From: Nemertoderma westbladi
Taxonomy: Eukaryota > Animalia > Xenacoelomorpha
Reading direction: 5' to 3'
DNA length: 64,000 bases
Assembly (NCBI GenBank): GCA_032718475.1
Contig: JAUCBJ010006543.1
Coordinates: forward strand, 17,528-81,527
Position numbers and translations under genes: made by a program. A model generated the notes under the pieces. The model made no database searches and was not told the origin of the DNA. It was given only the letters and a program-made list of their open reading frames with translations. Shown here piece by piece: positions 2,725 through 42,640 of this stretch. How positions within the stretch are numbered: the first letter of the stretch is position 1; each line of letters begins with the position of its first letter.

Positions 2725-4236
2725 TTTATTAAGTTGTACGGGAGAAGGATTTTATTGGTTTTGACACTTTTAATTTATGTGGTTGCGTGTTTCAGATCAA
2801 AGGGAATTGGAAATTAATGGATGCAGTAGGTTAGGCGGAATAGCGGGATTTGGTAGAACTAAGGAGAGTAGACGCACCTCCCCATCCCCTTCCCTCACCA
2901 GCCACATCCATATCTCTACCACAAACTGCTGTCACAGCAGCCAATGTATTGGTACATTAGATTGATACAAAAGCAACCTGGTTTACTGCCCAGCCCATCT
3001 CCAACCAATAATATTAGTTACTGGAATTATCCATCTATAGGATAGACATAGGACATATGAGCTATCGGTTTAACCAATTATAATTAACCTCCGCTACCAA
3101 CAACATTATAACTAACACCCCAGCAATGCCCCTTTCCAGATATCATCTGCACTATTGATCAGAAGCGCTATTGATTGGCTAATATCCTTGTTTTGCTTTG
3201 GTTGAATAATACCTTAGGCTTTAGTATATTAGGAAACCAACTACAACATTATTTTAGTTAGGCCTAGTGTATTGGGTTAGCTAGTGTATTGGGTTATTTT
3301 TAATATGTTGCAATGCCAGTACTCCTTCACAGACTGATGGTGTACTGGTAAACTACCTACCCTAAACCCTACTGGTACCGGTACAGGACTAGCTGATTGG
3401 TAATATCTGATTATATTAATTCTGATAAAATTAAAACCCAACCACATAATTTAATAGGCCTATACCGGTACGGTAGGTACCTTGTACCTGCTGTGCTCAC
3501 TCTTATCTGTTAAATATTAATTCTCATAAAATTAAAACCCAACCACCTAATTTAATAGGCCTATACCGGTACCTTGTACCTGAACCTGCTCTGCTCACTC
3601 TTATCTGTTATCTTCAACTCTATTCACTTCACTGCATTATTTAAACAAGATTCTTTATAATCCTTAGTTAGGTTATCTAATATAATAAATAATGTAGTCT
3701 ACAGTATTCTATATTGTTGCGAATTGCTACACACTACCGGTACTAGTGCTGTAGTGAGTTCTACATAATATACCGATACGGTACATCTGTGTATATTGTT
3801 ACTTCTTTAGTATCTAGTAGGTGTACTTATCTGACTCGTAGGAAGTTAGTTTTATTGACTGAGACCTCCAACTAACACAATTTTTTATGGAACAAGTAGT
3901 GGGCCTATTGCCTGTATCTTTATTTGACACAGACGGTTTTGTACAAAAGGCCTGTCAGCTACCAATTCTACATACATTGGTTATCAATTTGTAATTTATA
4001 ATATTTAATATAAAAAAAAATCCTTAGTTAATATTTATTGGTTAATTATTAGTAGGCCTACACTACAGTAAGTTGGTTTATTGATTATTAACTTTACATG
4101 CTTAGCTATATTTCAACCTGTGCATCATTAAAAAAAATCTAAATTAATATATACCAGTATAGTAATTAATTTACTATAATAAATAATATAATAATAATAA
4201 TAATAATAATTATTATTATATTTCACCTTTTATTAA

Positions 4237-5611
4237 CCCTTATTGTACACCTGGGGTCAAAAACGACCCCAGTGACCTAAATCTCTAATTTTTTCTTCAA
4301 TAGTTGTATGTGGGGTTCTGAACTTGATAGTACCTTCCTAGCACATGTAATTCTATGAAATACCATGAATATTTGTTTTGTTTATCTATTTGATATAAAA
4401 ATAAACACCTCTTTTTTAGCAACACTCCCTGTGACCGCCTGGGGTCAATAATGACCCCACTGATAAAATCAAATACAGGTTAGGGTGCACCTGCTCCTTT
4501 TTTTCGAAATTGGTGTTCTAGATAGTTTTATTTTGTTACACACCCCAAAAAATTGTTCCATGCCAAATTTTATGAAAATTGAACAATGTCTAGAGGGTAC
4601 ACACTCACACAAAGCACATGGCCAATTCCCGCCCCTTGGTGCAAGTGAGTCATATTCCCTATTTTTGTGATGATCAACTTCTAGTATTCCTACTGCATTG
4701 ATATTATGCTCATGAGAACCACAATGACCGATTTAGTTGTGTAGACACCTTCAAAACAAGCATAGAGCGAATAGTTTTTGAGATATTGCAGAAAATGTGA
4801 AGTCCAGTACAAGTCAACATTAGCACTTTGATGCGATATTGACAAATACACTAAAAATTATACTTCTAACTATCTCAAGGCATCCAGAATTTACACATAA
4901 CTGCAATCTCAATTTAGGTGATGTTGACCAGTTGACACTCTAAAAACTTGAGTTGAGTCATTTGTTCTCGAGTTATTGTACAAAATGTCTGGACTAGGTC
5001 AACTCAATATAAGGTCATTGGTGGACCTAGCCTTGACATTTTGTACAATAACTCGAGAACTAATCACTCAGCTAATATTTTTACAGTGTCAACATCACCT
5101 AAATTGATCATTGCAGTTATGTGTAAATTCTGGATGCCTTGAGATATTTAGAAGTATCATTTTTAGTGCATTTTGTCGATATCGCATCAAGGCGCTAATG
5201 TTGACTTGTGCCGGACTTCACATTTTATGCAATATCTCAAAAAATATTCACTCTATGCTTGTTTTGATGGTGTCTACACCAACTAAATCGGTCATTGCAG
5301 TTCTAATCAGCATAATATCAATGCAGTAGGAAAACTAGAAGTTGATCATCACAAAAATTGGGAATATGACTCACTTGCGCCAAGGGCGGGAACTGGCCAT
5401 ATGCTTTTAGTGTGAGTGTGGACCCTCCAGACATTGTTCAATTTTCATAAAATCTGGCATGGAACACTGTTTTGGGGAGTGTAACAAAATAAAGACATGA
5501 AGAAACTGTAGACCTACCATTTATTGGGGAAAAAATCACATTCAACTGAATGGGATCAAAAACGACCCCAGGTGGTGGAAGTGGCACTTTTACCACGTGT
5601 ACATAGGAGGG
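4237..5611. mobile_element. Non-autonomous piggyBac-type element with long internal inverted arms
   Basis: TTAA on both sides (4233-4236, 5612-5615) and CCCT...AGGG ends. The TIR CCCTCCT(C/A)TGTACAC is clearest in the second copy. Inverted arms run ~4528-5003 and ~5021-5492. Confidence 0.85.
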
Positions 5612-5615
5612 TTAA

Positions 5616-6585
5616 ATAAAATATTTAAAAACAAGGGAGAACATCAAGGTTTACAAAAACACTAACTGATGACAATTATACATTAAAAAGACAGACAAAC
5701 CAAATATACATAGTTCAATCATTAAAAATACTAATCAAAATCATTAATACAGTATAAACTTATATAAAATATAACCGAATAAAGTAAAAATAAAATAAGG
5801 CAAGTGAACTGATATTAATCTAAATTTCTAACTAATAATAATCTAATATTTTAAAATAACAATATCTTTTACCCGACTTTTAAAAACATTTATATTGGGA
5901 GAGTTAACTACTTCTACAGGTAATTCGTTCCATATATCAACTACGCGATTTGAAAATCTAAATTTACTAATTTGTAATCTGGCATATCGTTTAAATAATT
6001 TGAAATTATGACCTATATTGCTACGTTCACCATTTCCATAAGTAAAAAAATCATCAAAATTTAAATCAACACAGCTATTTATAATATTGTAAACCATTAT
6101 TAAATCTGATATGACGGTGCATTTCAAGTGGTTATAACTGTAGTTACGTTAATCGACAAGGTAACTCTTGCGATCTAGTTTACAGCGAGCAAAAAGACAC
6201 TGGGTAAAAAAGCGCTGTACTTGTTCAATCAAGTCAATAGTTCCAACGTTGAATGGTGACTGGTGTACAATACTCAAGTAATGGACGCAAATAAGCCTTG
6301 TAAGCGGTTAGTAGATCAAAGTATAAAAACATCGGAAAATCATATTAACTATTTTAAATGCTTTTTTTAACTTGTTCTCTAAAATATAAATTAAATTTTA
6401 AATATTGTAATTCCGAGATCACTGCATGACTCATCACTTGGCAATAATTTGTTAAACAAAATATATGGATACATGGTGGTACTACTACTTGTTGAAATAA
6501 TTGAAAATTGAAACTGAACATTTATGGGCAGCAATTGTAATTTGCCACTTAGTCGCCCAGTCTTCCAACTGATTCAATGCCAAAT
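5616..6585 (-). pseudogene. CR1-clade LINE 3' fragment (RT C-terminus and 3' UTR)
   Basis: DLIMVYNII...GHNFKL...FSNRVVDIWNELP...FKSRV is the characteristic CR1 ORF2 end. Stops and frameshifts lie upstream. Confidence 0.85.
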
Positions 6586-6754
6586 ATTATATGTAATATT
6601 ATATGTATCTGAGGCAAATCGGAGCAGAACTCAAATTCTGTTTAGCGGTGGTCCAGATGTATAACCCTTGGGCCAACATGTCTGGTTAATATGAAAATAA
6701 ATTAACCCGATAAAAGCCCATAACTGAGAAAAAGGCATGTTAAAACCAGTAATT

Positions 6755-7430
6755 AAGAAAAATAAAATTAATGAATTAAATACCAATAATATAGAAAAAA
6801 AAGGCAAGTAAAAACCAGTAATAAAGTAAAAAGGCAAGTAAAAACCGGTAATAAAGTATAGCAAAGTAAAGCAAGTAAAACTGATAATAAAGAAAAAAAA
6901 GATCAAGTGAAAACCGGTATGAAGGAAAAAAGGCAAGTAAAAACCGGTAATAAAGAAAAGGCAAGTAAAAACTGGAAATGAAGAAAAGAAAGGTCTTAAG
7001 TAAAAACCAGTAATAAAGAAAAAAAGGCAAGTAAAAACCAGTAATGAAGAAAAAGGTCTTAAGTAAAAACTGGTACTAGTAATAAAGAAAAAAAAGGCTA
7101 GTAAAAACCGGTAATGAAAAAAAATGCAAATAAAAACCGGAAATAAAGGAAATGGCAAGTAAAAACTGGTAATGAAGAAAAAAAGATCTTAAGTAAAAAC
7201 CGGTTATGAAGAAAAAAGGCTACTAGTAATAAAGAAAAAAAAGGCTAGTAAAAACCGGTAATGAAAAAAAAAATGCAAATAAAAAACGGAAATAAAGGAA
7301 ATGGCAAGTAAAAACTGGTAATGAAGAAAAAAAGATCTTAAGTAAAAACCGGTTATGAAGAAAAAAAGTAAAACTGGTAATGAAGAAAAAAGGTCTTAAG
7401 TAAAATCTGTTTATGAAGAAAAAAGGTTCC
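6755..7430. repeat. A-rich minisatellite, ~28-33-bp unit (GGCAAGTAAAAACCGGTAATAAAGAAAAAAA)
   Basis: Directly visible. The Phe/Tyr-rich ORFs here are artefacts of the repeat. Confidence 0.9.
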
Positions 7431-7935
7431 AAATGCTTTTATGACTTAAGTTGATATCTGCTCAACTAAACTGGGGCTAGATCTCCCCCTCCCCCCCCCC
7501 CCCCCCCCCAGGGGGCTAAAGGGGCAAGAAAAGAGCTGAAAAAATGGAACGATTCTTAGCAGTGGGTAAGAAATGGGTGTGGATTGGTCAGGAGTGGGCT
7601 AAATGTACCTTATATATGATTTTGGAGGTTTTGCTGTCACTTTTTGCCATTTCTCATTAAGACCAGCTTATAAAATGCGAGTGTAGTTCTTATTAGTTGT
7701 TTAGCCTGGGCTCTCAGTATAAAAAAAATTCTGCATTATGAAATAAAAAAAAGCTATATGTATATTTTTTGTCATCATATATTTGTTATTAAAAATAAAA
7801 AAAAGCTTATGTGTATATTTTTTATCATCATTTATTTGTTATTAAAAATAAAGTAAAATCGCTTATATTCTCAATTTCTCAGATATCTTATTTCTAAATT
7901 ATATTTGTTATATTTAATAATTCATGTTAGCAGAT

Positions 7936-9800
7936 TCAACCCGTTATGTGCTCCAACCAGAAAATGGGAGGGGTGCATTTCTGCGCATTGTGACGGATAT
8001 GTACTAATTTGGGTAGATACAGTATACCACATATGTAAGATACGCTGGAATCGTAACTAAAACCAAAAAGTTTTCTAATAATATTATTATATCCAACGCG
8101 GAATTTACTATATGTGGAGAGTGGAAAATTACTTCTCGCCCATAGGGAGTTACAGTAGATCTGAGTGCAAAATGACCTGAAAAGTTTTATTTTGACAATT
8201 TTTGAGCAATAGCTAAATTTACGTATTAAAAAGTTTCCTCTTCTATAAAGACTTGACAGTTGGTTAAGGATATCATAATTGTTGTCAGTTGTGTTGTGGA
8301 AAGTATTGCCTAAGTACTTGTATTTACTTACAGTTTCTATTGATTTACCATTAATACTGATAACAAGGCTATTTTTATATGATTTTGGTGTATAGGTTAT
8401 GAACTTAGATTTCTTAATATTAATAACGATGGAGTGCCTATCTGGGAAGTCTATGTAAGTATCAATAAGTTTTCTTAGACCAGCTATGGAATTAGAAACT
8501 AAAGACAGGACATCAGCGTACATTAAGTGAATACACCTATGTTTATTAAGTTGACAACCTATATTAGTATTGTTAAGTTCCCTACTAAGGTCGTCTACGT
8601 AAACAGCGTACAGATAACCAGATAGAATCCCCCCTTGTTTTGTCCCGTTTGTTACCGTAAAACTTTGAGTTTTGACATAATTTTGACGTAAAGCTTTGAA
8701 AACTTAAGAGTTTGAAAACGATACCAATACCTGATAATCCTAATATAAAAAGTAGAAATATTGCGATCAACTAATTTAGAGAATAATTTATAGTGATTAA
8801 CTAAGTCAAAGTCGAAGGCTTTAGAAGAGTCTATAAAACAAATGTAAATTGGGCTGTCATTATCCAAATAGTACTGTATTATTTCTTTTAAAGTGTATAT
8901 GAATAATTCTGTGCTTAACTTATTTTTGAAGGCAAATTGTGAATCGGAAGTAATTAGTTTTGCGCCAAATCGGTCAAGATATACTAATTCTAGAATTTTA
9001 CTACTAATTGATGCGAGATAGCAATGCCCCTATAATTGTCAAAATTTGTATTATCATCGTTCTTATCCTTCACAATGGGCAGGATATTGCAACGTATGAG
9101 ATCGTCATTTAAGTAGCCATGTACATTACAGATTGTGAAAATGGAAGCCAAATGCGAAAATAAACGAGCCATACCATTCATGTAATGTTCGCTGGCCAAA
9201 CCATCAGGGCCAGTTTTACCAGGGGACAATCTACAAACGGCTACAGCTACTTCGGCGTCTGTTACAAGCATACCGGTATCATTATTATACACAATATGAG
9301 TAAATATTGATTCAAGCTTTTCCTTGTCAGAGTCACTGTTGACCTTATTGTAAAGGGATGAGAATTTATCCTGAAAAAGGTTGCAAATGTCTTGCTCACC
9401 AACCGCACCACCAACTTTACTTGAAAGTGGGACGTTTGTACTGCAATGTTTCTTTACATTATTCCAGAAGTTGTTTTGATTATTGGAATACATTGACTCT
9501 GCAAGTTTATTAGCAGGAATACCCTTTTCCGTAAATTTACATTGTTTTAAAGCATGTTTGAACTCAAGTTTAAAATGTATATAATCACGAAATATTTGTC
9601 CTGCTCGGGGTCTCCCACTAGAGCGCCAAATACGAAAATGTAATCTTGATTCATCGTATTTCGATTTAATGAGATCGTTCCATCCCGGCACTGTATTACA
9701 TGTGTGGGACCCAGTTGGGTTTTTATTTTTAGGAATAGTTTGTTCAGCTGCCATATTAATAATACAGTTGAGTAGACAAAATATGACGTAATGGAATCAA
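7936..9800 (-). pseudogene. Degenerate LINE ORF2 (linker, RT and C-terminus), probably RTE-X-like
   Basis: VPGWND...GRPRAG, GPDGLASEH, NYRGIA, FIDSSKAFD, YAD(V), YKYLG and LYRRGN.LIRKFSYCS motifs, with frameshifts. The clade assignment is from memory of motifs. Confidence 0.8.
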
Positions 9801-9949
9801 TTATCAATGATACCTAGCTACTTGGAAGATGGTGAACACCTAATTTAATTATTATTTATTTTTACATTAGCAGATTGAGATTGAGTTCTTGAATATGAAA
9901 ATATAGAATACTCACTTTTGTAGAAAGTAGAGTCAATTTTATCATTCTG

Positions 9950-10114
9950 AATTGTGCCACTTATTACTTTTTTTTTATTTTTTTTAAACGATTTTTTGGT
10001 TTGTCGTTTTTGCTCGACCAAAAAGTCAATTCTTTGGTCAACCAAAAACTACTTTTTGGTTGACTAAAAAGTCAGTTAAAAAAAAGAAAAAAAGAAGTAA
10101 TAAGTGGCACAATT
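9950..10114. mobile_element. Small MITE (~165 bp)
   Basis: TIR AATTGTGCCACTTATTACT / AGTAATAAGTGGCACAATT, with internal TTTTGGTC(A/G)ACCAAAA palindromes. Confidence 0.7.
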
Positions 10115-10179
10115 ATTCAGCCACCATTTGACATTCAAATAATTCATACTAACTTACACAGTATCTTCTGTTTATTGTT

Positions 10180-10208
10180 GGCCCTTAAAAAAGGGCCGTT
10201 TTGGTTGG
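10180..10208 (-). other. Histone-3'-UTR-like stem-loop (orphan)
   Basis: The minus strand reads CCAACCAAAAC-GGCCCT-TTTTTA-AGGGCC-AAC. The loop is 2 nt longer than the canonical 4 nt, and no histone CDS is nearby. Duplicated at 33629-33657. Confidence 0.45.
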
Positions 10209-10223
10209 TAGGTCAGTTGGCCT

Positions 10224-11935
10224 TTATTTATTTATTTATTTATTATTTAATCCGGGCTAGCATACATCCCATATCAATATTACATACTGTAGAATGAATA
10301 TTATTTATGCACTTTATACGTAATTTATAGAATTACATATTTGTACCGTGGAACAGACCCCAGAGCTGGACGATTGATATAAGAGTAAATACCAAATTAA
10401 TATAATATATGTACACCAATTATTTATAATAACAATAATAAATAACACTTTAGTATAATGTTCACTGGCTAGTCCATCTGGACCAATCTTGTCACGAGAT
10501 ATCTTACCTACTGCAAATGCTACTTCAATGTCAGTCACAAACATATCCTTATTGAACTCAATGTTATTAAACATAGCTTCTACTTTATCCTTTTCAGTAT
10601 CACTGTTAACTTTATTATAAAGGTCCGCAAATTTTTCTTTAAAGAGATCACATATATCGTTTTCTCCTACCACAGTACCTGGAAAGAGGTACATTAGCAC
10701 CACAATGTTTTTTCACATTATTCCAGAATTCATTTTGGCTATCAGAGTACAGTGATTCTGCAAGTTTGTCAGCACGCAAATTCTTATCTCTACGCTTACA
10801 CTGTTTCAAAGCTCGTTTAAACTCAAATTTAGCATGCATGTAGTCATGGAAAATCTGTCCAGCCCTAGGGGATCCATGTGTAGGCCAAATACTCAAATAC
10901 CAAAAAATAGCCTCCTCGATTCATTATATTTATGTTTAACGAGGTCGTTCCAACCAGGTACAACCCTAGACTGCTGATGGGGAACTTTTTGGAATGGTCC
11001 GGTGCGTAAGCTAGCTTTACCACACAGACAATGGCATTATAATAATTATCAATTGCATTTTTATGCAGTGTACACCTACATTGTGCATCATGACATTCAC
11101 ATACGTTCTTAGGAATAATAATTTTACTAAGCAGATTATTTAGCACCAATTGATAATTAAGATTAGCAGCCATTGTTTTACTCCAGTCACATTTTTGCAT
11201 GGATGAATTTATTAAAGCAACTGTCACTATTATTACTCGATCTATTATTTTTCAGCACAGGTACAATACAAATTATCCATTCCAATATCCAAATTAAATA
11301 ATACTGGCATATGGTCTGAGACAGACAATTCATTGACTGTAACTGAATGCATCAACGGTACAACACTGCCAGTGCATGCCACATGGTCCAGCCATGAACA
11401 TGTATTATGAGCAGCACTCACGAATGTAAATGTTCCCACTGGAAGTAAGTTAATGTCATATAAAATCATATTCATATTTTTGCACCAATTATTGGTATAA
11501 TTAAAATAACGTGAGTCCGAGCCTGCATTAAAATCTCCTATCACGACACAGTGGGATGTATTCGCACAATCTATTATTGAACTGATCTTACCAAGTGTTT
11601 CTAAAAATTAATCATCGTTATCCGTGCATTCATTCGTAAGGCATATATATGTTTAACAGTAGGATTGTCATATTGTCATTTTTGTATTTAATCCCAAAAG
11701 TTCTCGGTTCCTTATAATCTATAATTTCAATGAATTGAGCTATATTATTTTTATATAAAAATCCAACTCCACCATATGGTCTATCTTGCAGTAGGGTGTC
11801 TCTGTAATCAACAGGCAAGATACCTCCAAGCAGACCAATCAAGTGCAAATCCTGCACAAGGCTGTTTAAACAATGTTACGCTGACTGATTCACATCTACG
11901 ACTGTAGCATCAATCACAGCTTTAAACTTACTGAA
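10224..11935 (-). pseudogene. RTE-X-like LINE with internal deletions (APE, linker, 3' UTR and (TAAA)n tail)
   Basis: RPYGGVGFL, NIYMP, IGDFNA, SWLDHV and SDHMPV (APE motifs). GPDGLASEH is joined directly to a 3' UTR ending in (TAAA)n. Confidence 0.8.
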
Positions 11936-12098: not shown

Positions 12099-12535
12099 AC
12101 TCTGGGTTTAGATTTGGTTGCGTGGATCACAGATGTCAACAAGAACATCGTGTTTAGAACAGTTGTAAGTGTATTTGGCAACAAGTGTATTGATGAATCT
12201 CAGTTGGTTTGAGACGATTCCATTAAAAAATTCAAAACACGGCAGTGGGAAAAACATATTTACATCTGGGGATTCAAGCCAAAAGAATTGAGATTATTCT
12301 TTACACGGGGGTGGGGTCACTTACCACTTAATGAGTCTGAGCCCGGAGAGTCTTTAAACTGAGATATTTTCTACACAGATGGGGTCACAAGTCGAGTCCA
12401 CGCCCAGATTGACTCTATAAACTGAGATATTTCTCTACAGGGGGGTCACAAGTTGCGTTCGAGCCTGGAGAGACCCATTAAACGAAGATATTTCTCTGCA
12501 GGGAGAGACTCATTAAACTGACTTTCAACTGCCAC

Positions 12536-13238
12536 AGGCACAGCTACCACTGGGTCCTCCATGAACACAGCGTCCCAGACTGAACCAAGGACGACATCGC
12601 TAATGGCTGGGCCAGTCAGATGGGTTTGTGGACCATATCAGCTAGCCCAGTTAATTGTGGTATTTCAGCCACAATTTCCTTGCCCGCTGATTGTGCTTTC
12701 GCCACCACCACCTCAGCCCTTGGCTTCCTCAGTTTGGCTTGTCCGAATCAGTTTTGGATGTCCATAAATGGCAGGGGCTGGATAGGATTCAGCGATAGTA
12801 ATATCGCTAATCTGTGCTGAGACCTGAGTTGTTTCCATACAGATAATGGGAATGTTCTGACCCTTCTCACATATGACTCTCTCTAGCCACTTCTCTTTGG
12901 ATATGATCCAGTTCTAGAGAGGCACAGCTACCACTGGGTCCTCCATGAACACAGCGTCCCAGACTGAACCAAGGACATCGCTAATGGCTGGGCCAGTCAG
13001 ATGGGTTTGTGGACCATATCAGCTAGCCCAGTTAATTGTGGTATTTCAGCCACAATTTCCTTGCCCGCTGATTGTGGTTTCGCCACCACCACCTCAGCCC
13101 TTGGCTTCCTCAGTTTGGCTTATCCGGATCAGTTTTGGATGTTCATAAATAGCAGGGGCTGGATAGGATCAGCGATAGTAATATCGCTAATCTGTGCAGA
13201 GACCTGAGTTTTTTCCATACAGATAATGGGAATGTTCT
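12536..13238. repeat. Tandem duplication, 384-bp period (~1.8 copies), paralogous to 15078-15265 plus 16819-16985
   Basis: AGGCACAGCTACCACTGGGTCCTCCAT starts at 12536, 12920 and ~15078. Confidence 0.85.
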
Positions 13239-13571
13239 ACCAATTCATTCAACCAATGGGGATCAAGAATTCCCTTAGTGTTGTTCTCTAAATAAACTAT
13301 ATATATTAATATAATAAAAATAAAATAATAGGAAGGCATTTTATACAACCATGTTCAGCATGATCCGGTCTCTTAAATATAATTTTGAGTTGAACGAATT
13401 ATGTTTTTGACAGACCAATATCAAGCAAGTAAAATTATTTGGAAACAGAGAAACAACATGTTCCTATCTGTTCAACCGTAAGTAGTCATCGTTTTATTTA
13501 AGCAGGGACACAAAGCGCAACCCTGTTTAAATACTGTAAGTAAAATTATCACATTGGTTACATTTTTGCAT

Positions 13572-13625
13572 ATGTGTTTCGCCGGGATTTGGCTCATCAG
13601 CTACACTAACCCGTGCAGGACACAT
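13572..13625 (-). ncRNA. Hammerhead ribozyme, type III (copy 1)
   Basis: AUGUG-UC/-CUGCAC-GGGUUA-GUGUAG-CUGAUGA-GCC-AAAUCCC-GGC-GAA-ACACAU: full catalytic core, three stems and a GUC triplet. Predicted cleavage is between 13619 and 13618. Confidence 0.93.
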
Positions 13626-14031
13626 GTTAATCCAACTAACTACACCAAAACCCAGCTAAACACACACACATACATAATAAACAAAATAGTATTGCATTCC
13701 AGATCAAATAAGCAATCATTTCCTTAGCAACACTATATGAGATAATTTGTCTAGTGCATGGTTGCTAATTATAATAAAAATAAAATAATAGGAAGGCATT
13801 TTATACAACCATGTTCAGCATGATCCGGTCTCTTAAATATAATTTTGAGTTGAACGAATTATGTTTTTGACAGACCAATATCAAGCAAGTAAAATTATTT
13901 GGAAACAGAGAAACAACATGTTCCTATCTGTTCAACCGTAAGTAGTCATCGTTTTATTTAAGCAGGGACACAAAGCGCAACCCTGTTTAAATACTGTAAG
14001 TAAAATTATCACATTGGTTACATTTTTGCAT

Positions 14032-14085
14032 ATGTGTTTCGCCGGGATTTGGCTCATCAGCTACACTAACCCGTGCAGGACACAT
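14032..14085 (-). ncRNA. Hammerhead ribozyme, type III (copy 2)
   Basis: Identical to copy 1, shifted by 460 bp. Predicted cleavage is between 14079 and 14078. Confidence 0.93.
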
Positions 14086-14329
14086 GTTAATCCAACTAAC
14101 TACACCAAAACCCAGCTAAACACACACACATACATAATAAACAAAATAGTATTGCATTCCAGATCAAATAAGCAATCATTTCCTTAGCAACACTATATGA
14201 GATAATTTGTCTAGTGCATGGTTGCTAATTCCATGCATATATATTAATATAATATATATGACCCCAAATGATATATTATAGGCTTATAAAATGCACATAC
14301 GTAATATGATACATTAATGTATGCGGACC

Positions 14330-17300
14330 TTCCACTCATCTAGTGACACCCTCACTGTTCTTAGGGCAAAACCTACCTAACCCTGAAATTGCTATGTCCA
14401 GTGGCGGCAAGCATATAATTGTGGCAGGTCTTGCAAACATGCTTGCCAACTACAGGAATGGGGGGTGGGCGGGGGCCAAGCAGTCAGACGTGCCACTGCT
14501 CATGCGTCTCACCATCAACATTCTTGGGGCAGAACCACTTACACCACACCCTCTCCCATCCTTTCTGGATGTTCTTACCCAGCCGCATACGTTTCTGGTG
14601 CCTCCACTCAGTCATATAACCCCTCTTACGCCCCACATTCCGAGTGCTAGTGAGATTGGCCAGCATTGGGGGCAATGCTTCATCAGCCTGTCTCACCCAC
14701 TTTATGTTGGCAATTTTTGATCTTTCTGGTTCTTTTGGATTTTGGTTTTAGGGGTTTAGATTTCTGGACTGTATGTTTTCGTATGTAAATGGATAGAGGG
14801 ACATTCTCGGAGGATGAGAGAAATTGGAATGTGGAAGTTCTATTTGGGTTGGGGTTGATGTAGAAGGGCCAGAGGAAATAATCAGTACTGAGGAAGGTAA
14901 CTGATGGACGGTAGGGACACTGGGATAAGAATGCTCACCATAAAGGTCTCTGTTCCCAGGAGGGAAGCTGGTCCATGCCACCTGTGGCGGTGGCAGGGAC
15001 ACGGATGCGGGCAGCGGTGCCACCATCTGGATATAATCAGTCGCCACAAATGTGGCATGATCAATTTCAACAGCCACAGGCACAGCTACCACTGGGTCCT
15101 CCATAAACACAGCATCCCAGACTGAACCAAGGACATCACAGGTGCAATAGCAAGTGCAGGGCCAGTCAGCTGGGATGGTTAGACCACATCAGCTAGCCTG
15201 TAATTGCTGGTTTGGACACCACCTTAGCCCTCAGCTTCCACAGTTTCACTTGTCCAGATCAGTCTCCCAGGTAGCACAGGACGTCCACGAAAGAAATTGA
15301 ACGTTCATATTTGGTACTTTTTTTATGCGAATCTGAACATCAATGAAATATTGTTCAAAATAGGTAACAATTGCTGACGTTGTGAGTAATTTACCAAATT
15401 GTGACGTTCACATTAGGTAATTTAACGTCCTAACTTTAAAGAAATTGAATATGTACCAAAACAAACGAATATTGAACGTTCAAATTGCGTCCAGTTATGC
15501 GTTCATTTCTTTGTACCTAAATATGTACGTTGTTTGAACATTTATGAACGTTCAAACATAATTTACTTTAACTTGTTATGTCAATGGCATGTTCAAACTT
15601 GTTCGTGATACAATTATCTGACTATTTATTATTGTGCAATTATTTTTTATGTTGGTTAGCCTACTCCTTGTATGGTTGGTGTGGTTCCGCTTAGTTATAT
15701 CTGGACTAATGGTTCATTCTCAATACAAAACAATTACTTTAAGTAATCGAAAAATTATTCACACAACAAAACATTGATAACCAATACAATGCTGACGCAT
15801 TTTTAAACATTTTAAACAACAAATAACATCAAAATTAGACAAAGGTGATTCTACTGATTACTAAAGCTAATACACTAGTACTATGTCACAAAAAATTGTA
15901 ATAAAATTATTAGAATATATTAGGCCTATTGAACCAAGAAAATAACAAACAAAGAAAACCGCAAAAGTTTGTCTATTTTGATACCAACTGACCAAATACC
16001 ATTACATTTTGTTGAGATAAATCGGATATATGGGCGTTGGAATGTTCAAACTTCTATCATGCGTAGGGTAATTTTTTTAATCGCAAAACATTATTTTTTA
16101 TTTTACAAATTTATCATATTATATAAACCTTTCTTACGTTTCAATTGCTTTTTGTATGTATTATTGCCTTATTGCATAGATAAAAAATTTCAAATATCAA
16201 TTATAAGGTCATAAAATTAATGAATTTTTTTAAGATTCATCAATATGAAAAATCTATTTTGGCTGGAAATAAGATAAAATACAGAAAACTAACTAATCCA
16301 ATGCGAATTTGTGGATCATCACCATAATATATCATGGATACTCTTATATCACTATCGATTAAATAATTTCATATATACTCTGATGCTTCCTTCTCTAAAT
16401 GTATAGGGTATTGTAGGTGTAGGGCCGTAGGATAGGGTGTAGGGATTGGATAAGGTAGGCTAACCCCCCCCCCCCCTCCCCCCCTCCCCTCTCTACACAG
16501 AACATGCACCAACAAACAGTGATTGGTTGGTCTCACGTTAAATTTTTACGTTTATTCAACCTAATATGGACCTATAACACACCATAAATGAACGTCTAGT
16601 GAACACGTCATTTGATCATAGATTGCCTGTGGTCTCTTTTACGTTCAATTGCCCGTTCATATTACGGTACTTCTGACGGCCAACTTTGAACTATTGAACG
16701 TTTAGCATCAATAGCATCTTATGGGAGAAATACAACGTCATATGAACATAAATCCAGAACGTCTGGACGAATAATGAACGTAAATTTACCGTAAATTTAC
16801 GTATTTGTGCTACCTGGGCTGGGACGTCAGTAAATGGCAGGGGCTGGATGGGATTGGCAATGGTCATGTCTCGAATCTGTGCCGAGACCTGAGTAGTCTC
16901 CACATGGATAACGGGAATGTTCTGCCCCCTTCTCACATGTGACTCTCTCTAGCCGCTTCTCATTCGAGATAATCTAGTTAGAGAGAGTCCTCTTGTAAAA
17001 GAGGTGGCAATGGCAGCATATTACTTAAGAATTATTGCTTTCCTTGACTCATAGCCTCTCTTCTCTGTCCCATCGATTTGGGGATGGGTGTGTCCCCTAA
17101 TCTCCTCGGACAACTTCTGAACCAACTCCTCTTGTCATCAGAGGCAGCTAACCCTGCCAGTGGCAGTGGCACCTGCCAGTGGCAGTGGCAGTGGTGATGG
17201 ATTCTCTGTAGGGGCTGGTGGCAGTGGCGATGATTCTCTGTAGGGTTTGGTGGCAGTGGCGTCACCATAGGGGACAGTGGCTGTGGTGTAACCATAGTAT

Positions 17301-27021: not shown

Positions 27022-27109
27022 TATTAAGTATATGTAAGTAATTAATTTACTATAATAAATAATATAATAATAATAATAATTATTATTATTATATTTCACC
27101 TTTTATTAA

Positions 27110-28454
27110 CCCTCCTCTGTACACCTGGGGTCAAAAACGACCCCAGTGACCTAAATCTCAAATTTTTTCTTCAATAGTTGTATGTGGGGTTCTGAACTTG
27201 ATAGTACCTTCCTAGCACATGTAATTCTATGAAATACCATGAATATTTGTTTTGTTTATCTATTTGATATAAAAATAAACACCTCTTTTTGAGCAACACT
27301 CCCTGTGACCACCTGGGGTCAATAATGACCCCACTGATAAAATCAAATACAGGTTAGGGTTGCACCTGCTCCTTTTTTTCGAAATTGGTGTTCTAGATAG
27401 TTTTATTTTGTTACACTCCCCAAAAAATTGTTCCATGCCAAATTTTATGAAAATTGAACAATGTCTAGAGGGTCCACACTCACACAAAGCACATGGCCAA
27501 TTCCCGCCCCTTGGTGCAAGTGAGTCATATTCCCTATTTTTGTGATGATCAACTTCTAGTATTCCTACTGCATTGATAATATGCTCATTAGAACCACAAT
27601 GACCGATTTAGTTGGTGTAGACACCTTCAAAACAAGCATAGAGCCAATAGTTTTTGAGATATTGCAGAAAATGTGAAGTTCAGTACAAGTCAACATTAGC
27701 ACTTTGATGCGATATTGACAAATACACTAAAAATTATACTTCTAACTATCTCAAGGCATCCAGAATTTACACATAACTGCAATCTCAATTTAGGTGATGT
27801 TGACCAGTTGACACTCTAAAAACTTGAGTTGAGTCATTTGTTCTCAAGTTATTGTACAAAATGTCTGGACTAGGTCAACTCAATATATGGAAGGTCATTG
27901 GTGGACCTAGCCTTGACATTTTGTACAATAACTCGAGAACTAATCACTCAGCTAATATTTTTAGAGTGTCAACATCACCTAAATTGATCATTGCAGTTAT
28001 GTGTAAATTCTGGATGCCTTGAGATAATTAGAAGTATCATTTTTACTGCATTTTGTCGATATCGCATCAATATCTCAAAAAATATTCACTCTATGCTTGT
28101 TTTGATGGAGTCTACACTAACTAAATCGGTCATTGCAGTTCTAATCAGCATAATATCAATGCAGTAGGAAAACTAGAAGTTGATCATCACAAAAATTGGG
28201 AATATGACTCACTTGCGCCAAGGGCGGGAACTGGCCATGTGCTTTTAGTGTGAGTGTGGACCCTCCAGACATTGTTCAATTTTCATAAAATCTGGCATGG
28301 AACACTGTTTTGGGGTGTGTAACAAAATAAAGACATGAAGAAACTGTAGACCTACCATTTATTGGGGAAAAAATCACATTCAACTGAATGGGGTCAAAAA
28401 CGACCCCAGGTGGTAGAAGTGGCACTTTTACCACGTGTACATAGGAGGGGAGGG
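27110..28454. mobile_element. piggyBac-type foldback element (duplicate of 4237-5611)
   Basis: TTAA-CCCTCCTCTGTACAC ... GTGTACATAGGAGGG(GAGGG)-TTAA. Confidence 0.85.
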
Positions 28455-28458
28455 TTAA

Positions 28459-29400
28459 ATAAAATATTTAAAAACAAGGGAGAACATCAAGGTTTACAAA
28501 AACACTAACTGATGACAATTATACATTAAAAAGACAGACAAACCAAATATACATAGTTCAATATAATACAGTATAAACTTATATAAAATATAACCGAATA
28601 AAGTAAAAATAAAATAAGGCAAGTGAACTGATATTAATCTAAATTTCTAACAAACCGACAATATTTTAAAATATCAATATCTTTTACCCGACTTTTAAAA
28701 ACATTTATATTGGGAGAGTTAACTACTTCTACAGGTAATTCGTTCCATATATCGACTACGCGATTTGAAAATCTAAATTTACTAATTTGTAATCTGGCAT
28801 ATCGTTTAAATAATTTGAAATTATGACCTATATTGCTACTTTCACCATTTCCATAAGTAAAAAAATCATCAAAATTTAAATCAACACAGCTATTTATAAT
28901 ATTGTAAACCATTATTAAATCTGATATGACGGCGCATTTCAAGTGGTTATAACTGTAGTTACGTTAATCGACAAGGTAACTCTTGCGATCTAGTTTACAG
29001 CGAGCAAAAAGACACTGGGTAAAAAAGCGCTGTACTTGTTCAATCAAGTCAATAGTTCCAACGTTGAATGGTGACTGGTTTACAATACTCAAGTAATGGA
29101 CGCAAATAAGCCTTGTAAGCGGTTAGTAGATCGAAGTATAAAAACATCGGAAAATCATATTAACTATTTTAAATGCTTTTTTTAACTTGTTCTCTAAAAT
29201 ATAAATTAAATTTTAAATATTGTAATTCCGAGATCACTGCATGACTCATCACTTGGCAATAATTTGTTAAACAAAATATATGGATACATGGTGGTACTAC
29301 TACTTGTTGAAATAATTGAAAATTGAAACTGAACATTTATGGGCAGCAATTGTAATTTGCCACTTAGTCGCCCAGTCTTCCAACTGATTCAATGCCAAAT
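28459..29400 (-). pseudogene. CR1 3' fragment (duplicate)
   Basis: ORF 28634-28942 has the same motifs as 5843-6127. Confidence 0.85.
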
Positions 29401-29569
29401 ATTATATGTAATATTATATGTATCTGAGGCAAATCGGAGCAGAACTCAAATTCTGTTTAGCGGTGGTCCAGATGTATAACCCTTGGGCCAACATGTCTGG
29501 TTAATATGAAAATAAATTAACCCGATAAAAGCCCATAACTGAGAAAAAGGCATGTTAAAACCAGTAATT

Positions 29570-30885
29570 AAGAAAAATAAAATTAATGAATTAAATACCA
29601 ATAATATAGAAAAAAAGGCAAGTAAAAACCAGTAATAAAGTAAAAAGGCAAGTAAAAACCGGTAATAAAGTATAGCAAAGTAAAGCAAGTAAAACTGATA
29701 ATAAAGAAAAAAAAGATCAAGTGAAAACCGGTATGAAGGAAAAAAGGCAAGTAAAAACTGGAAATGAAGAAAAGAAAGGTCTTAAGTAAAAACCAGTAAT
29801 AAAGAAAAAAAGGCAAGTAAAAACCAGTAATGAAGAAAAAGGTCTTAAGTAAAAACTGGTACTAGTAATAAAGAAAAAAAAGGCAAGTAAAAACCAGTAA
29901 TAAAGTAAAAAGGCAAGTAAAAACCGGTAATAAAGTATAGCAAAGTAAAGCAAGTAAAACTGATAATAAAGAAAAAAAAGATCAAGTGAAAACCGGTATG
30001 AAGGAAAAAAGGCAAGTAAAAACCGGTAATAAAGAAAAGGCAAGTAAAAACCGGAAATGAAGAGAAGAAAGTTCTTAAGTAAAAACCGGTAATAAAGAAA
30101 AAAAGGCAAGTAAAAACCAGTAATGAAGAAAAAGGTCTTAAGTAAAAACTGGTACTAGTAATAAAGAAAAAAAAGGCAAGTAAAAACCAGTAATAAAGTA
30201 AAAAGGCAAGTAAAAACCGGTAATAAAGTATAGCAAAGTAAAGCAAGTAAAACTGATAATAAAGAAAAAAAAGATCAAGTGAAAACCGGTATGAAGGAAA
30301 AAAGGCAAGTAAAAACCGGTAATAAAGAAAAGGCAAGTAAAAACTGGAAATGAAGAAAAGAAAGGTCTTAAGTAAAAACCAGTAATAAAGAAAAAAGGCA
30401 AGTAAAAACCGGTAATGAAAAAAAAAATGCAAATAAAAACCGGAAATAAAGGAAATGGCAAGTAAAAACTGGTAATGAAGAAAAAAAGATCTTAAGTAAA
30501 AACCGGTTATGAAGAAAAAAGGCTACTAGTAATAAAGAGAAAAAAGGCTAGTAAAAACCGGTAATGAAAAAAAAAATGCAAATAAAAACCGGAAATAAAG
30601 GAAATGGCAAGTAAAAACTGGTAATGAAGAAAAAAAGATCTTAAGTAAAAACCGGTTATGAAGAAAAAAGGCTACTAGTAATAAAGAAAAAAAAGGTTAG
30701 TAAAAACCGGTAATGAAAAAAAAAATGCAAATAAAAACCGGAAATAAAGGAAATGGCAAGTAAAAACTGGTAATGAAGAAAAAAAGATCTTAAGTAAAAA
30801 CCGGTTATGAAGAAAAAAGGCAAGTAAAACTGGTAATGAAGAAAAAAGGTCTTAAGTAAAATCCGTTTATGAAGAAAAAAGGTTC
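29570..30885. repeat. A-rich minisatellite (longer duplicate of 6755-7430)
   Basis: Same unit, about twice the length, with multi-unit blocks repeated. Confidence 0.9.
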
Positions 30886-31390
30886 CAAATGCTTTTATGA
30901 CTTAAGTTGATATCTGCTCAACTAAACTGGGGCTAGATCTCCCCCCCCCCCCCCCCCCCCCCCCAGGGGGCTAAAGGGGCAAGAAAAGAGCTGAAAAAAT
31001 GGAACGATTCTGAGCAGTGGGTAAGAAATGGGTGTGGATTGGTCAGGAGTGGGCTAAATGTACCTTATATATGATTTTGGAGGTTTTGCTGTCACTTTTT
31101 GCCATTTTTCATTAAGACCAGCTTATAAAATGCGAGTGTAGTTCTTATTAGTTGTTTAGCCTGGGCTCTCAGTATAAAAAAAATTCTGCATTATGAAATA
31201 AAAAAAAGCTATATGTATATTTTTTGTCATCATATATTTGTTATTAAAAATAAAAAAAAGCTTATGTGTATATTTTTTATCATCATTTATTTGTTATTAA
31301 AAATAAAGTAAAATCGCTTATATTCTCAATTTCTCAGATATCTTATTTCTAAATTATATTTGTTATATTTAATAATTCATGTTAGTAGAT

Positions 31391-33250
31391 TCAACCCGTT
31401 ATGTGCTCCAACCAGAAAATGGGAGGGGTGCATTTCTGCGCATTGTGACGGATATGTACTAATTTGGGTAGATACAGTATACCACATATGTAAGATACGC
31501 TGGAATTGTAACTAAAACCAAAAAGTTTTCTAATAATATTATTATATCCAACGCGGAATTTACTATATGTGGAGAGTGAAAAATTACTTCTCGCCCATAG
31601 GGAGTTACAGTAGATCTGAGTGCAAAATGACCTGAAAAGTTTTATTTTGACAATTTTTGAGCAATAGCTAAATTTACGTATTAACAAGTTTCCTCTTCTA
31701 TAAAGACTTGACAGTTGGTTAAGGATATCATAATTGTTGTCAGTTGTGTTGTGGAAAGTATTGCCTAAGTACTTGTATTTACTTACAGTTTCTATTGATT
31801 TACCATTAATACTGATAACAAGGCTATTTTTATATGATTTTGGTGTATAGGTTATGAACTTAGATTTCTTAATATTAATAACGATGGAGTGCCTATCTGT
31901 GAAGTCTATGTAAGTATCAATAAGTTTTCTAAGACCAGCTATGGAATTAGAAACTAAAGACAGGACATCAGCGTACATTAAGTGATTACACCTATGTTTA
32001 TTAAGTTGACAACCTATATTAGTATTGTTAAGTTCCCTACTAAGGTCGTCTACGTAAACAGCGTACAGATAACCAGATAGAATCCCCCCTTGTTTTGTCC
32101 CGTTTGTTACCGTAAAACTTTGAGTTTTGACATAATTTTGACGTAAAGCTTTGAAAACTTAAGAGTTTGAAAACAATACCAATACCTGATAATCCTAATA
32201 TAAAAAGTAGAAATATTGCGATCAACTAATTTAGAGAATAATTTATAGTGATTAACTACGTCGAAGGCTTTATAAGAGTCTATAAAACAAATGTAAATTG
32301 GGCTGTCATTATCCAAATAGTACTGTATTATTTCTTTTAAAGTGTATATGAATAATTCTGTGCTTAACTTATTTTTGAAGGCAAATTGTGAATCGGAAGT
32401 AATTAGTTTTGCGCCAAATCGGTCAAGATATACTAATTCTAGAATTTTACTACTAATTGATACGAGATAGCAATGCCCCTATAATTGTCAAAATTTGTAT
32501 TATCATCGTTCTTATCCTTCAGAATGGGCAGGATATTGCAACGTATGAGATCGTCATTTAAGTAGCCATGTACATTACAGATTGTGAAAATGGAAGCCAA
32601 ATGCGAAAATAAACGAGCCATACCATTCGTGTAATGTTCGCTGGCCAAACCATCAGGGCCAGTTTTACCAGGGGACAATCTACAAACGGCTACAGATACT
32701 TCGGCGTCTGTTACAAGCATACCGGTATCATTATTATACACAATATGAGTAAATATTGATTCAAGCTTTTCCTTGTCAAAGTCACTGTTGACCTTATTGT
32801 AAAGGGATGAGAATTTATCCTGAAAAAGGTTGCAAAAGTCTTGCTCACCAACCGCACCACCAACTTTACTTGAAAGTGGGACGTTTGTACTGCAATGTTT
32901 CTTTACATTATTCCAGAAGTTGTTTTGATTATTGGAATACATTGACTCTGCAAGTTTATTAGCAGGAATACCCTTTTCCGTAAATTTACATTGTTTTAAA
33001 GCATGTTTGAACTCAAGTTTAAAATGTATATAATCACGAAATATTTGTCCTGCTCGGGGTCTCCCACTAGAGCGCCAAATACGAAAATATAATCTTGATT
33101 CATCGTATTTCGATTTAATGAGATCGTTCCATCCCGGCACTGTATTACTTGTGTGGGACCCAGTTGGGTTTTTATTTTTAGGAATAGTTCGTTCAGCTGC
33201 CATATTAATAATAAAGTTGAGTAGACAAAATATGACGTAATGGAATCAAT
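31391..33250 (-). pseudogene. RTE-X-like ORF2 (duplicate of 7936-9800)
   Basis: Near-identical ORF fragments. Confidence 0.8.
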
Positions 33251-33398
33251 TATCAATGATACCTAGCTACTTGGAAGATGGTGAACACCTAATTTAATTA
33301 TTATTTATTTTTACATTAGCAGATTGAGATTGAGTTCTTGAATATGAAAATATAGAATACTCACTTTTGTAGAAAGTAGAGTCAATTTTATCATTCTG

Positions 33399-33563
33399 AA
33401 TTGTGCCACTTATTACTTTTTTTTTATTTTTTTTAAACGATTTTTTGGTTTGTCGTTTTTGCTCGACCAAAAAATCAATTCTTTGGTCGACCAAAAACTA
33501 CTTTTTTGTTGATTAAAAAGTCACTTAAAAAAAGAAAAAAAAGAAGTAATAAGTGGCACAATT
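33399..33563. mobile_element. Small MITE (duplicate of 9950-10114)
   Basis: Same TIRs. Confidence 0.7.
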
Positions 33564-33671
33564 ATTCAGCCACCATTTGACATTCAAATAATTAATACTA
33601 ACTTACACAGTATCTTCTGTTTATTGTTGGCCCTTAAAAAAGGGCCGTTTTGGTTGGTAGGTCAGTTGGCC

Positions 33672-34995
33672 TTTATTTATTTATTTATTTATTATTTAAT
33701 CCGGGCTAGCATACATCCCATATCAATATTACATACTGTAGAATTAATATTATTTATGCACTTTATACGTAATTTATAGAATTACATATTTGTACCGTGG
33801 AACAGACCCCAGAGCTGGACGATTGATATAAGAGTAAATACCAAATTAATATAATATATGTACACCAATTATTTATAATAACAATAATAAATAACACTTT
33901 AGTATAATGTTCACTGGCTAGTCCATCTGGACCAATCTTGTCACGAGATAACCTACCTTACTGCAAATGCTACTTCAATGTCAGTCACAAACATATCCTT
34001 ATTGAACTCAATGTTATTAAACATAGCTTCTACTTTATCCTTTTCAGTATCACTGTTAACTTTATTATAAAGGTCCGCAAATTTTTCTTTAAAGAGATCA
34101 CATATATCGTTTTCTCCTACCACAGTACCTGGAAAGAGGTACATTAGCACCACAATGTTTTTTCACATTATTCCAGAATTCATTTTGGCTATCAGAGTAC
34201 AGTGATTCTGCAAGTTTGTCAGCACGCAAATTCTTATCTCTACGCTTACACTGTTTCAAAGCTCGTTTAAACTCAAATTTAGCATGCATGTAGTCATGGA
34301 AAATCTGTCCAGCCCTAGGGGATCCATGTGTAGGCCAAATACTCAAATACCAAAAAATAGCCTCCTCGATTCATTATATTTATGTTTAACGAGGTCGTTC
34401 CAACCAGGTACAACCCTAGACTGCTGATGGGGAACTTTTTGGAATGGTCCGGTGCGTAAGCTAGCTTTACCACACAGACAATGGCATTATAATAATTATC
34501 AATTGCATTTTTATGCAGTGTACACCTACATTGTGCATCATGACATTCACATACGTTCTTAGGAATAATAATTTTACTAAGCAGATTATTTAGCACCAAT
34601 TGATAATTAAGATTAGCAGCCATTGTTTTACTCCAGTCACATTTTTGCATGGATGAATTTATTAAAGCAACTGTCACTATTATTACTCGATCTATTATTT
34701 TTCAGCACAGGTACAATACAAATTATCCATTCCAATATCCAAATTAAATAATACTGGCATATGGTCTGAGACAGACAATTCATTGACTGTAACTGAATGC
34801 ATCAACGGTACAACACTGCCAGTGCATGCCACATGGTCCAGCCATGAACATGTATTATGAGCAGCACTCACGAATGTAAATGTTCCCACTGGAAGTAAGT
34901 TAATGTCATATAAAATCATATTCATATTTTTGCACCAATTATTGGTATAATTAAAATAACGTGAGTCCGAGCCTGCATTAAAATCTCCTATCACG
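33672..34995 (-). pseudogene. RTE-X-like fragment (duplicate of 10224-11545)
   Basis: Near-identical, truncated at the 34995 deletion junction. Confidence 0.8.
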
Positions 34996-37374: not shown

Positions 37375-38090
37375 GACAGGTTGGCTCAGTAGGTTTAGCG
37401 CCAGGCAATCTATTGGTTGTAGGTTCACCCAAACCAGGGTCCACTTAACCTTTCATGCCCTGGGCTCGATAAAATTAGTACCAGTTAAATTACTGGGGAT
37501 AGGAGAGGGATTAAGGGATAGGAGAAGCGTCCACCCCTACCCTCGGGTAGCAGATAGGAGTAGCACCCACCCCTACCCTCGGGTAGCAGATAGGAGTAGC
37601 ACCCACCCCTACCTTCGGGTAGCAGATAGGAGTAGCGCCCACCCCTACCTTCGGGTAGCAGATATGAGTAGCGGCCACCCCTACCTTCGGGTAGCAGATA
37701 CGAGTAGCACCCACCCCTACCTTCGGGTAGCAGATAGGAGTAGCGCCTACCCCTACCTTCGGGTAGCAGATATGAGTAGCGGCCACCCCTACCTTCGGGT
37801 AGCAGATAGGAGTAGCATTCACCCCTACCTTCGGGTAGCAGATAGGAGTAGCGTTCACCCCTACCTTCGGGTAGCAGAGAGGAGTAGCGCCCACCCCTTC
37901 CTTGGAGTAGCGCCCACCCCTTCCTTCGGGTAGCAGATAGGAGTAGTGCCCACCCCTACCTTTGGGTAGCAGATAGGAGCAGCGCCCACCCCTACCTCGT
38001 CAAGCTCATGAGTTACTGGTGCAGAGCCTGCCTCTCCAGATATATTAATAAAGGAGTTCACCATCACCATCAGCACCAGCATCAGCTTTC
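37375..38090 (+). mobile_element. tRNA-headed SINE with an internal minisatellite
   Basis: A-box-like TGGCTCAGTAGG and a degenerate B-box GGTTCAC. The central CCTTTCATGCCCTGGGCTCGATAAAATTAGTACCAG resembles a core widespread in animal SINEs. AATAAA is followed by a (CACCAT)-like tail. Confidence 0.6.
37515..37997. repeat. 36-bp minisatellite (~13 copies), CCACCCCTACCTTCGGGTAGCAGATAGGAGTAGCRC
   Basis: Directly visible. The period of 36 matches the 12-aa repeat in ORF 37370-37933. Confidence 0.95.
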
Positions 38091-42500: not shown

Positions 42501-42640
42501 CCAACTTCTGCACCCACTCTTGTTTATCCTTACCACAAAGAATTTCATGGTTTTTCTATTTGGTGAGTAATAATTCGTTATTAAATATCATATCAGCACA
42601 TTTAAACTACTGTACTAACAACAAATAGACTACAGTACAA
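39552..42640 (-). pseudogene. Further rearranged DUF6729-like transposase copies
   Basis: HSDHTRKLAKK...MMNEF, YMDRDC and QKLVEYAYMF motifs. 39900-40225 is repeated at 42310-42638. Confidence 0.65.

Follow-up and report, generated by a model that had tools for sequence, protein, structure and literature searches.

A recent insertion of a multicopy, protein-free tandem repeat with type III hammerhead motifs in an animal genome, probably spread as circular RNA

Introduction

Two head-to-tail, non-coding units of 460 bp lie in a 64,000-nt stretch of Nemertoderma westbladi DNA (hereafter the window), each with a hammerhead ribozyme motif of type III topology. The question raised by this locus is what kind of element the units belong to and how it came to be inserted in an animal genome. 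The published picture is split: plant elements have LTRs, type III motifs and a blocked ribozyme, whereas animal elements are tandem, with type I motifs and a free ribozyme. The definition of metazoan non-LTR retrozymes includes a type I motif (PMC7229834; bioRxiv 10.64898/2026.07.22.740005) and most animal retrozyme circles leave the ribozyme free, with the exception of some mussel circles (PMC7229834), while the type III motifs of plant LTR retrozymes are blocked in a long arm (PMC4918200; review PMC11722881). In animal DNA, type III motifs are known from termites and flies, where they take a long atypical form (PMC7936874), and insects are mentioned as holders of this type (PMC7761336). The 2026 survey (bioRxiv 2026.07.22.740005) searched for type I only, whereas PMC7229834 did include type III architectures in its search of animals. 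A preliminary description of the locus had stated that described animal retrozymes are mostly of type I, which agrees with this literature, but the occurrence of type III motifs in animals cannot be called unprecedented, as dipteran and termite examples are known (PMC7936874).

Results

Two identical non-coding units within an 18-bp target duplication

Comparison of positions 13310-13770 with 13770-14230 gave 0 mismatches at a period of 460, and the insert comprises two units plus 1 nt (Table 1), as the preliminary description had claimed. The count of two may depend on the assembly, since a cyclic repeat may be traversed any number of times during assembly. The unit has a GC content of 33.7%, and in its circularised form no ATG-initiated ORF exceeds 41 aa on the strand of the ribozyme or 51 aa on its complement, which supports the view of a protein-free element. 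Further copies of the unit are absent from the rest of the 64-kb window, and neither a PBS-like site nor a purine run of at least 10 or a poly(A) tract of at least 8 was found for the element. A tRNA search detected no tRNA, and sigma-70-like sites occurred in the unit at chance level (4 found versus 5.6 expected). Pol III transcription was dismissed on visual inspection, as the RNA strand contains several U runs of at least 4; Helitron and DNA-transposon readings were rejected given the long duplication with internal microhomology.

Table 1. Positions of the features of the insertion within the window
Feature	Position	Strand	Remark
TSD, left copy, TA-rich	13299..13316	.	last 7 nt (13310-13316) also unit sequence
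460-bp unit, copy 1	13310..13769	-	circularly permuted, start = monomer nt 309
Type III hammerhead, downstream copy in RNA sense	13572..13625	-	predicted cut 13619/13618
Predicted 460-nt monomer between cleavage sites	13619..14078	-	predicted branched fold closed by a rod of about 50 nt
Antisense lock arm (predicted)	13620..13670	-	monomer nt 409-459, imperfect complement of ribozyme body
460-bp unit, copy 2 plus 1 nt	13770..14230	-	identical to copy 1
Type III hammerhead, upstream copy in RNA sense	14032..14085	-	predicted cut 14079/14078
Antisense lock arm (predicted), second copy	14080..14130	-	
Six extra bases, 5' junction	14231..14236	+	reverse complement of unit sequence 9 nt upstream
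TSD, right copy	14237..14254	.	direct repeat, and empty site in run X2

The insert is flanked by an 18-nt direct repeat, compared to a maximum of 13 nt obtained in 1000 shuffles of the junction windows. The target site duplication (TSD) of 18 bp claimed for this locus is further borne out by an empty site in run X2, where a 398-nt contig joins position 13298 to 14237 with 0 differences, 18 letters fitting either side. In run X1 one contig stops at 13316 and another begins 12 letters before 14237, from which we infer that the empty allele is present in this run too. The filled insertion junction was bridged by none of the contig pieces listed (27 of 686). Five of the nine sequencing runs contain the stretch or part of it, four of them with at least half of its words; none of the nine is recorded as RNA. 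The empty site in public DNA, together with the many contigs per run described below, indicates a recent insertion of a multicopy family and thereby supports the proposal of a young and mobile element.

The proposed arrangement of a dimer flanked by the duplication holds, but its borders are not clean: the left copy of the duplication overlaps the unit by 7 nt, and six extra bases are present at the other end. The 7-nt overlap likely represents a priming microhomology. The extra bases contribute to a 7-bp DNA hairpin with a 9-nt loop at the 5' junction and likely derive from snap-back of the cDNA before joining. At this locus the duplication encloses only the 460-bp units. Both ends of the insert correspond to monomer nt 309, a coincidence that random 5' truncation would produce with a chance of about 3 in 460, and this congruence is independent of the true number of units, whether one, two or more. 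Ends at one and the same unit position are predicted for copying round a circle, whereas a linear template would not give rise to them.

The left flank (12523-13238) consists of a 381-bp tandem duplication of another multicopy repeat, of which a partial copy is found at 15065-15198.

A complete type III hammerhead motif in each unit

On the minus strand each unit contains a complete type III hammerhead, with the CUGA located at 14060 and 13600 and cleavage predicted 3' of GUC at 14079 and 13619. The core is intact and all 15 stem pairs tested are standard (6 in stem I, 3 in stem II and 6 in stem III), confirming the type III motif with perfect core that had been noted before. Stem I comprises 6 bp and a 6-nt loop, stem II 3 bp and a 7-nt loop, and stem III 6 bp. 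The hammerhead descriptor matched the window twice, compared to a single match in 200 dinucleotide shuffles of the whole window. In the descriptor scan the plus strand gave 0 matches, and a minimal type I scan of the window likewise gave none. A comparison of the Rfam families Hammerhead_3 and Hammerhead_1 had been suggested as a check of the type; the search of the 64 kb yielded 0 matches at gathering level, and no hammerhead family was among the 10 rows listed at E<=10. Rfam thus leaves the type undecided, and the assignment to type III follows from the topology seen in the sequence. Between loop 1 (14072-14067) and loop 2 (14050-14044), 5 pairs could form, worth a predicted -4.3 kcal/mol in a duplex. 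Pseudoknots of this loop-loop kind are found in about 40% of hammerheads (PMC3088659).

An antisense arm centred on the cleavage site

The ribozyme is part of an inverted repeat that spans monomer nt 395-525 and has its centre at nt 460, the cut nucleotide. Alignment of the 51-nt arm to the ribozyme body comprises 33 Watson-Crick pairs, 12 G·U and 0 A·C pairs, 5 transversion mismatches and 1 gap. The excess of G·U over A·C, a strand-neutral comparison, is significant (binomial p=0.00024). Since a decayed DNA inverted repeat would give equal numbers of G·U and A·C, this bias suggests that a process on the RNA strand shaped the arm, which may have been selection acting at the RNA level or editing of the RNA with subsequent reverse transcription; both would need RNA of the ribozyme strand.

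The inverted repeat centred on the cut nucleotide accounts for a strong predicted fold of the monomer on the ribozyme strand, with z=-5.3 for the linear form; for the circular form z=-6.1 was obtained, compared to -1.6 for the circle of the other strand (60 shuffles for each circle). In the predicted circle the arm pairs with 44 of the first 52 nt, and the cut site is positioned in a 3-nt loop at the tip of the rod. The predicted rod-tip geometry would suit a ligase that acts on 5'-OH and cyclic-phosphate ends. Ligation by RtcB has been shown for axolotl and mussel monomers (PMC7229834).

As the arm precedes the ribozyme, the precursor would be locked too. In equilibrium predictions the gap by which a competing fold beats the active one is 27-28 kcal/mol for both ribozymes in a read-through transcript, where the competitor is the locked hairpin, 6.6-8.6 kcal/mol for RNA beginning at the previous cut, and about 5.2 for the isolated motif. 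In a transcript reading through this locus, the arm, which the preliminary description had overlooked, is therefore predicted to keep the ribozyme blocked. The controls were 32 distinct phage type III motifs, picked with a pattern derived from the motif of the unit. In isolation they had a median gap of 0.65, and 1 of the 32 reached the 5.1 of the unit motif; with 56 nt of upstream sequence included, the maximum gap was 6.4 and none of the 32 had a comparable upstream lock. The fold competing with the active state of the isolated motif uses the same G and C runs as the loop 1-loop 2 pairs, which the nested folding model cannot score (about -4.3 kcal/mol).

In the growing chain, the arm is predicted to make its own hairpin first, and stem I attains a probability of 0.77 at nt 18. 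Among the lengths tested stem I is dominant only at this point, the lock prevails from nt 20, and the predicted barrier from the active to the locked state is only 6.3 kcal/mol. According to these models, the lock argues against easy cleavage of the read-through transcript, and the first cut would be unexplained unless transcription starts within the arm or the brief folding window suffices.

A multicopy family with variants and an inverted joint at the predicted cut

Contigs matching 361 nt of the unit (13400-13760) numbered 293 in run X1, 108 in X2 and 163 in X4, with X1 and X4 representing one sample. These 108-293 contigs per run support the multicopy status of the element. In X1, 170 of the 293 unit contigs are at least 99% alike. 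The summed depth of the unit in this run was about 10^4 compared to 25-50 for single flank contigs; this depth is not a copy number, and as a rough estimate the family may be present in hundreds of genomic copies. Nine variants have a frequency of at least 1%, four of which affect unpaired positions, one keeps a predicted pair and four break one, two of the latter pairs being weakly predicted. The 54-nt motif includes none of the nine, where about 1.3 would be expected (not significant), and the arm has three common variants, of which one keeps and two break a predicted pair.

The share of contigs continuing into unlike sequence beyond the unit is 0-0.01. Two contigs of 326 and 531 nt match only 13586-13670, that is, the ribozyme core and the arm, with 7 differences, and loose contig ends were found at 13557, 13572, 13669 and 13735 (X1, X2 and X4; part 13400-13760). 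Together, these partial matches and loose ends suggest a ribozyme-plus-arm module that is shared by several different bodies, representing diverged sister families.

An opposite-strand joint of 13444 to 13618/14078 is present in X1 and X2 with depths of 35 and 53, and its second piece begins exactly at monomer nt 1 in RNA sense. The shorter side of the X2 joint comprises 45 letters with the stretch starting from 13400, which places this piece below 13444. We interpret the X1 and X2 joint as a single event at another locus, joining copies head-to-head at the predicted cut end. By analogy, it fits twin priming (described in PMC2837659) or the inverted 5' copies of Penelope-like elements (PLEs). 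As the tip of the hairpin coincides with the cleavage site, the joint could also stem from tip breakage or from RT switching. In run X5, which contains a small share of the words of the stretch, a 587-nt contig carries 13354-13395 in one orientation and 13839-13950 in the opposite one, an inversion away from the cleavage site.

Run X3, possibly an RNA run and labelled as another organism, contains one 383-nt contig identical to 13691-14073 at a depth of 5.6, which spans the unit junction and ends 5 nt before the cut. Since trace DNA of a multicopy repeat would look alike, this contig was not counted as evidence for RNA.

Search for relatives

The loop-pairing pattern gave 0 matches in viral contigs and 0 in metagenome contigs, and an exact 27-mer had 0 matches in viral contigs. 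A 16-mer was found at 119 metagenome loci (27 of 64 parts scanned), none of which had stem II closure. At 51 viral loci with generic type III motifs, only the core was in common with the motif of the unit. A literature search that covered few subscription papers did not turn up any compact type III motif described for a tandem element of animals. The suggestion of a possibly undescribed family is in line with this lack of relatives in the collections searched. Three phage contigs (L010:601-1131, L015:601-877 and L023:601-877) contain two identical type III hammerheads each, 486 and 227 nt apart.

Discussion

Comparison to known systems

In its layout the element is like metazoan non-LTR retrozymes: the units are short, non-coding and head-to-tail with one hammerhead each, GC is below 50% (33.7%), LTR, PBS and PPT are lacking, the target duplication exceeds 4 bp (18 bp here), and the monomer is highly paired in the predictions. 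With 460 nt the unit is just over the 150-450 bp given in PMC7229834 and within the 51-972 bp of bioRxiv 2026.07.22.740005. It differs from these retrozymes in that the motif is only of type III and not of type I, in the stable 6-bp stem III, and in a ribozyme that is predicted to be blocked by the arm, a free ribozyme being typical, though not universal, among metazoan non-LTR circles. Type III motif, long blocking arm (predicted here), branched remainder and about two thirds of bases paired are shared with plant LTR retrozymes, but the LTR-internal-LTR layout, the tRNA-Met PBS and the purine tract are missing, the duplication is 18 instead of 4 bp, GC is 34% instead of more than 55%, and the unit is smaller. 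The HDV-like, termite and dipteran atypical hammerheads are likewise of type III with predicted Watson-Crick or wobble pairing of loops 1 and 2; however, in those forms stems I and II are long, with an internal loop, an extra hairpin and a stem II of 6 bp, whereas stems of 6 and 3 bp make the present motif compact, and the termite motifs are isolated rather than part of a tandem mobile unit (PMC7936874). Zeta and betaviroid-like circles (bioRxiv 10.64898/2026.09.16.752053) resemble the element in size range and in a type III motif that is paired in the folded circle, unlike the present case of a single polarity, no ORF, a branched fold and multicopy DNA with insertion scars. An animal layout combined with a ribozyme of the plant and viroid kind leads us to propose that the element would work like an animal non-LTR retrozyme, yet falls outside the published definition.

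Proposed life cycle

We consider it probable that this locus represents a recent, polymorphic insertion of a multicopy protein-free repeat which likely spread as reverse-transcribed circular RNA, the reverse transcriptase probably being borrowed from a PLE or a LINE. Arrays would be transcribed on the minus strand and the hammerhead would cut after GUC. The antisense arm may then fold onto the ribozyme body and bring the cut ends together at the tip of the rod of about 50 nt for a host ligase, and the same arm would subsequently prevent recutting of the circle. A nicked TA-rich target could prime within the circle via the 7 matching bases (pairing with nt 303-309); the reverse transcriptase would go round the circle and halt back at the priming site, giving a whole number of permuted units, and a staggered second nick would generate the 18-bp duplication. 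Cutting may proceed as a relay, in that each arm of a 5'-cut multimer would pair with the body of its own unit and leave the next ribozyme nearly free. In a read-through transcript, cutting would begin slowly or depend on a different start point. The retrozyme cycle and RtcB ligation are known from PMC7229834, where a PLE partner is proposed, and inverted 5' copies of PLEs as well as (TA)n targets of Naiads are described in PMC8557442. The TA-rich target, internal priming, lack of poly(A) and inverted joints lead us to favour a PLE over a tail-dependent LINE as partner. Among the 70 of 122 window ORFs scanned there were 0 GIY-YIG matches and no PLE was seen. Matches to LINE reverse transcriptase and endonuclease are abundant in the window. 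For one neighbouring LINE reverse transcriptase, 120 relatives were listed, of which five carry eukaryote names, all of animals (ctenophore 2, lancelet 2, eel 1), and two are labelled as bacterial bins, the rest being unnamed or 'hypothetical'. These names make an animal host, probably an invertebrate, likely. A search with one LINE reverse transcriptase returned no match, and atlas scores were all below 0.9.

Alternative explanations

We regard it as unlikely that the unit is an endogenised viroid-like circle ('animal retroviroid') with once-paired type III hammerheads, the arm being a decayed opposite-strand ribozyme kept as a lock; just as doubtful is the scenario that such a circle was captured by a host reverse transcriptase, now has hundreds of genomic copies and cuts by relay. 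Viroids share the type III topology, the locked ribozyme and the highly paired circle, but the predicted fold is branched rather than a rod and that of the plus strand is no better than shuffles. Zeta and betaviroid viroid-like RNAs carry type III motifs on both strands, paired in a rod (bioRxiv 10.64898/2026.09.16.752053), whereas here the plus strand has no hammerhead and the conserved core Gs are all absent from it. When the opposite strand of the arm is compared to the ribozyme body, 33 of 51 columns align, yet head-to-head inversions at the cleavage site, as present in the family itself, could create such an arm without a viroid ancestor. Neither the viral nor the metagenome contigs searched contained a relative.

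A second alternative, to which we likewise give a small chance, sees the unit as a pLTR detached from an undescribed autonomous PLE with a type III ribozyme and travelling as a part or as truncated copies of that element. Xenopus retrozymes derive from pLTRs (bioRxiv 2026.07.22.740005), and tandem or inverted insertions and TA-rich targets are PLE traits (PMC8557442); however, the PLE hammerheads described in the literature consulted are of type I, and the term 'type III' occurs 0 times in PMC4209133. Some contigs share only the ribozyme and the arm and then continue into other sequence, but the share doing so is as low as stated above, the duplication at this locus encloses units alone, and no ORF with reverse transcriptase and GIY-YIG domains adjoins them. 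As an origin, a pLTR is compatible with the preferred explanation of a repeat spread through circular RNA, and the two readings compete only if the unit cannot spread independently.

That the ribozyme is permanently locked and inactive and the repeat spread as uncut multimeric RNA or by DNA-level satellite amplification is very unlikely: the predicted 28 kcal/mol lock, the competing nested fold and the lack of cleavage in 8 of 9 Xenopus dimers tested (bioRxiv 2026.07.22.740005) would fit this explanation, but the core and all stems are intact, the motif is free of the variants at or above 1% (a weak indication), the nt-1 joint and the whole-lap insert call for a cut end and a circle, failing which they would be two coincidences, and plant retrozymes with blocked arms cleave to about 50% in vitro (PMC4918200).

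Implications

The element mixes the plant and the animal set of features, and with the 2026 survey restricted to type I, a class of such elements in animals may have gone unnoticed; ribozyme type would then not be tied to the mode of mobilisation. The insertion scars, comprising the whole-lap insert, internal priming and the joint at the cut site, may be read as signs at the DNA level of a circular-template route that has hitherto been a proposal. An arm centred on the cut offers a testable answer to how recutting is avoided and how the ends are presented to the ligase. The element also bears on the question whether viroids originated from retrozymes or the reverse, and the viroid-derived reading, if true, would directly link viroid-like replicons and animal retroelements.

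Other repeats in the window

Tandem arrays of 147 bp (x13) at 46388-48297 and of 36 bp (x11-13) at 37517-37997 were searched and no hammerhead was found in them. A repeated ORF of 159 aa containing Cys and His is located at 51525-52004, with related DNA at 39577-40134 and 41943-42547; it had no Pfam match and only weak atlas matches, and possibly encodes a transposon protein. Two near-identical duplications, 23852-25810/34994-36952 (99.7%) and 25818-27021/38348-39551 (99.3%), are either recent or haplotype artefacts. A composite of about 7.4 kb occurs twice, at 4161-11545 and 27037-34995, with 93-97% identity, and includes a near-palindrome (4527-5493), an A-rich tandem repeat and fragments of LINE reverse transcriptase and endonuclease. 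The region 58357-61376 corresponds to the 5' part of a LINE, with a coiled-coil ORF1-like frame, an endonuclease fragment and a Cys-rich motif which we take to be finger-like.
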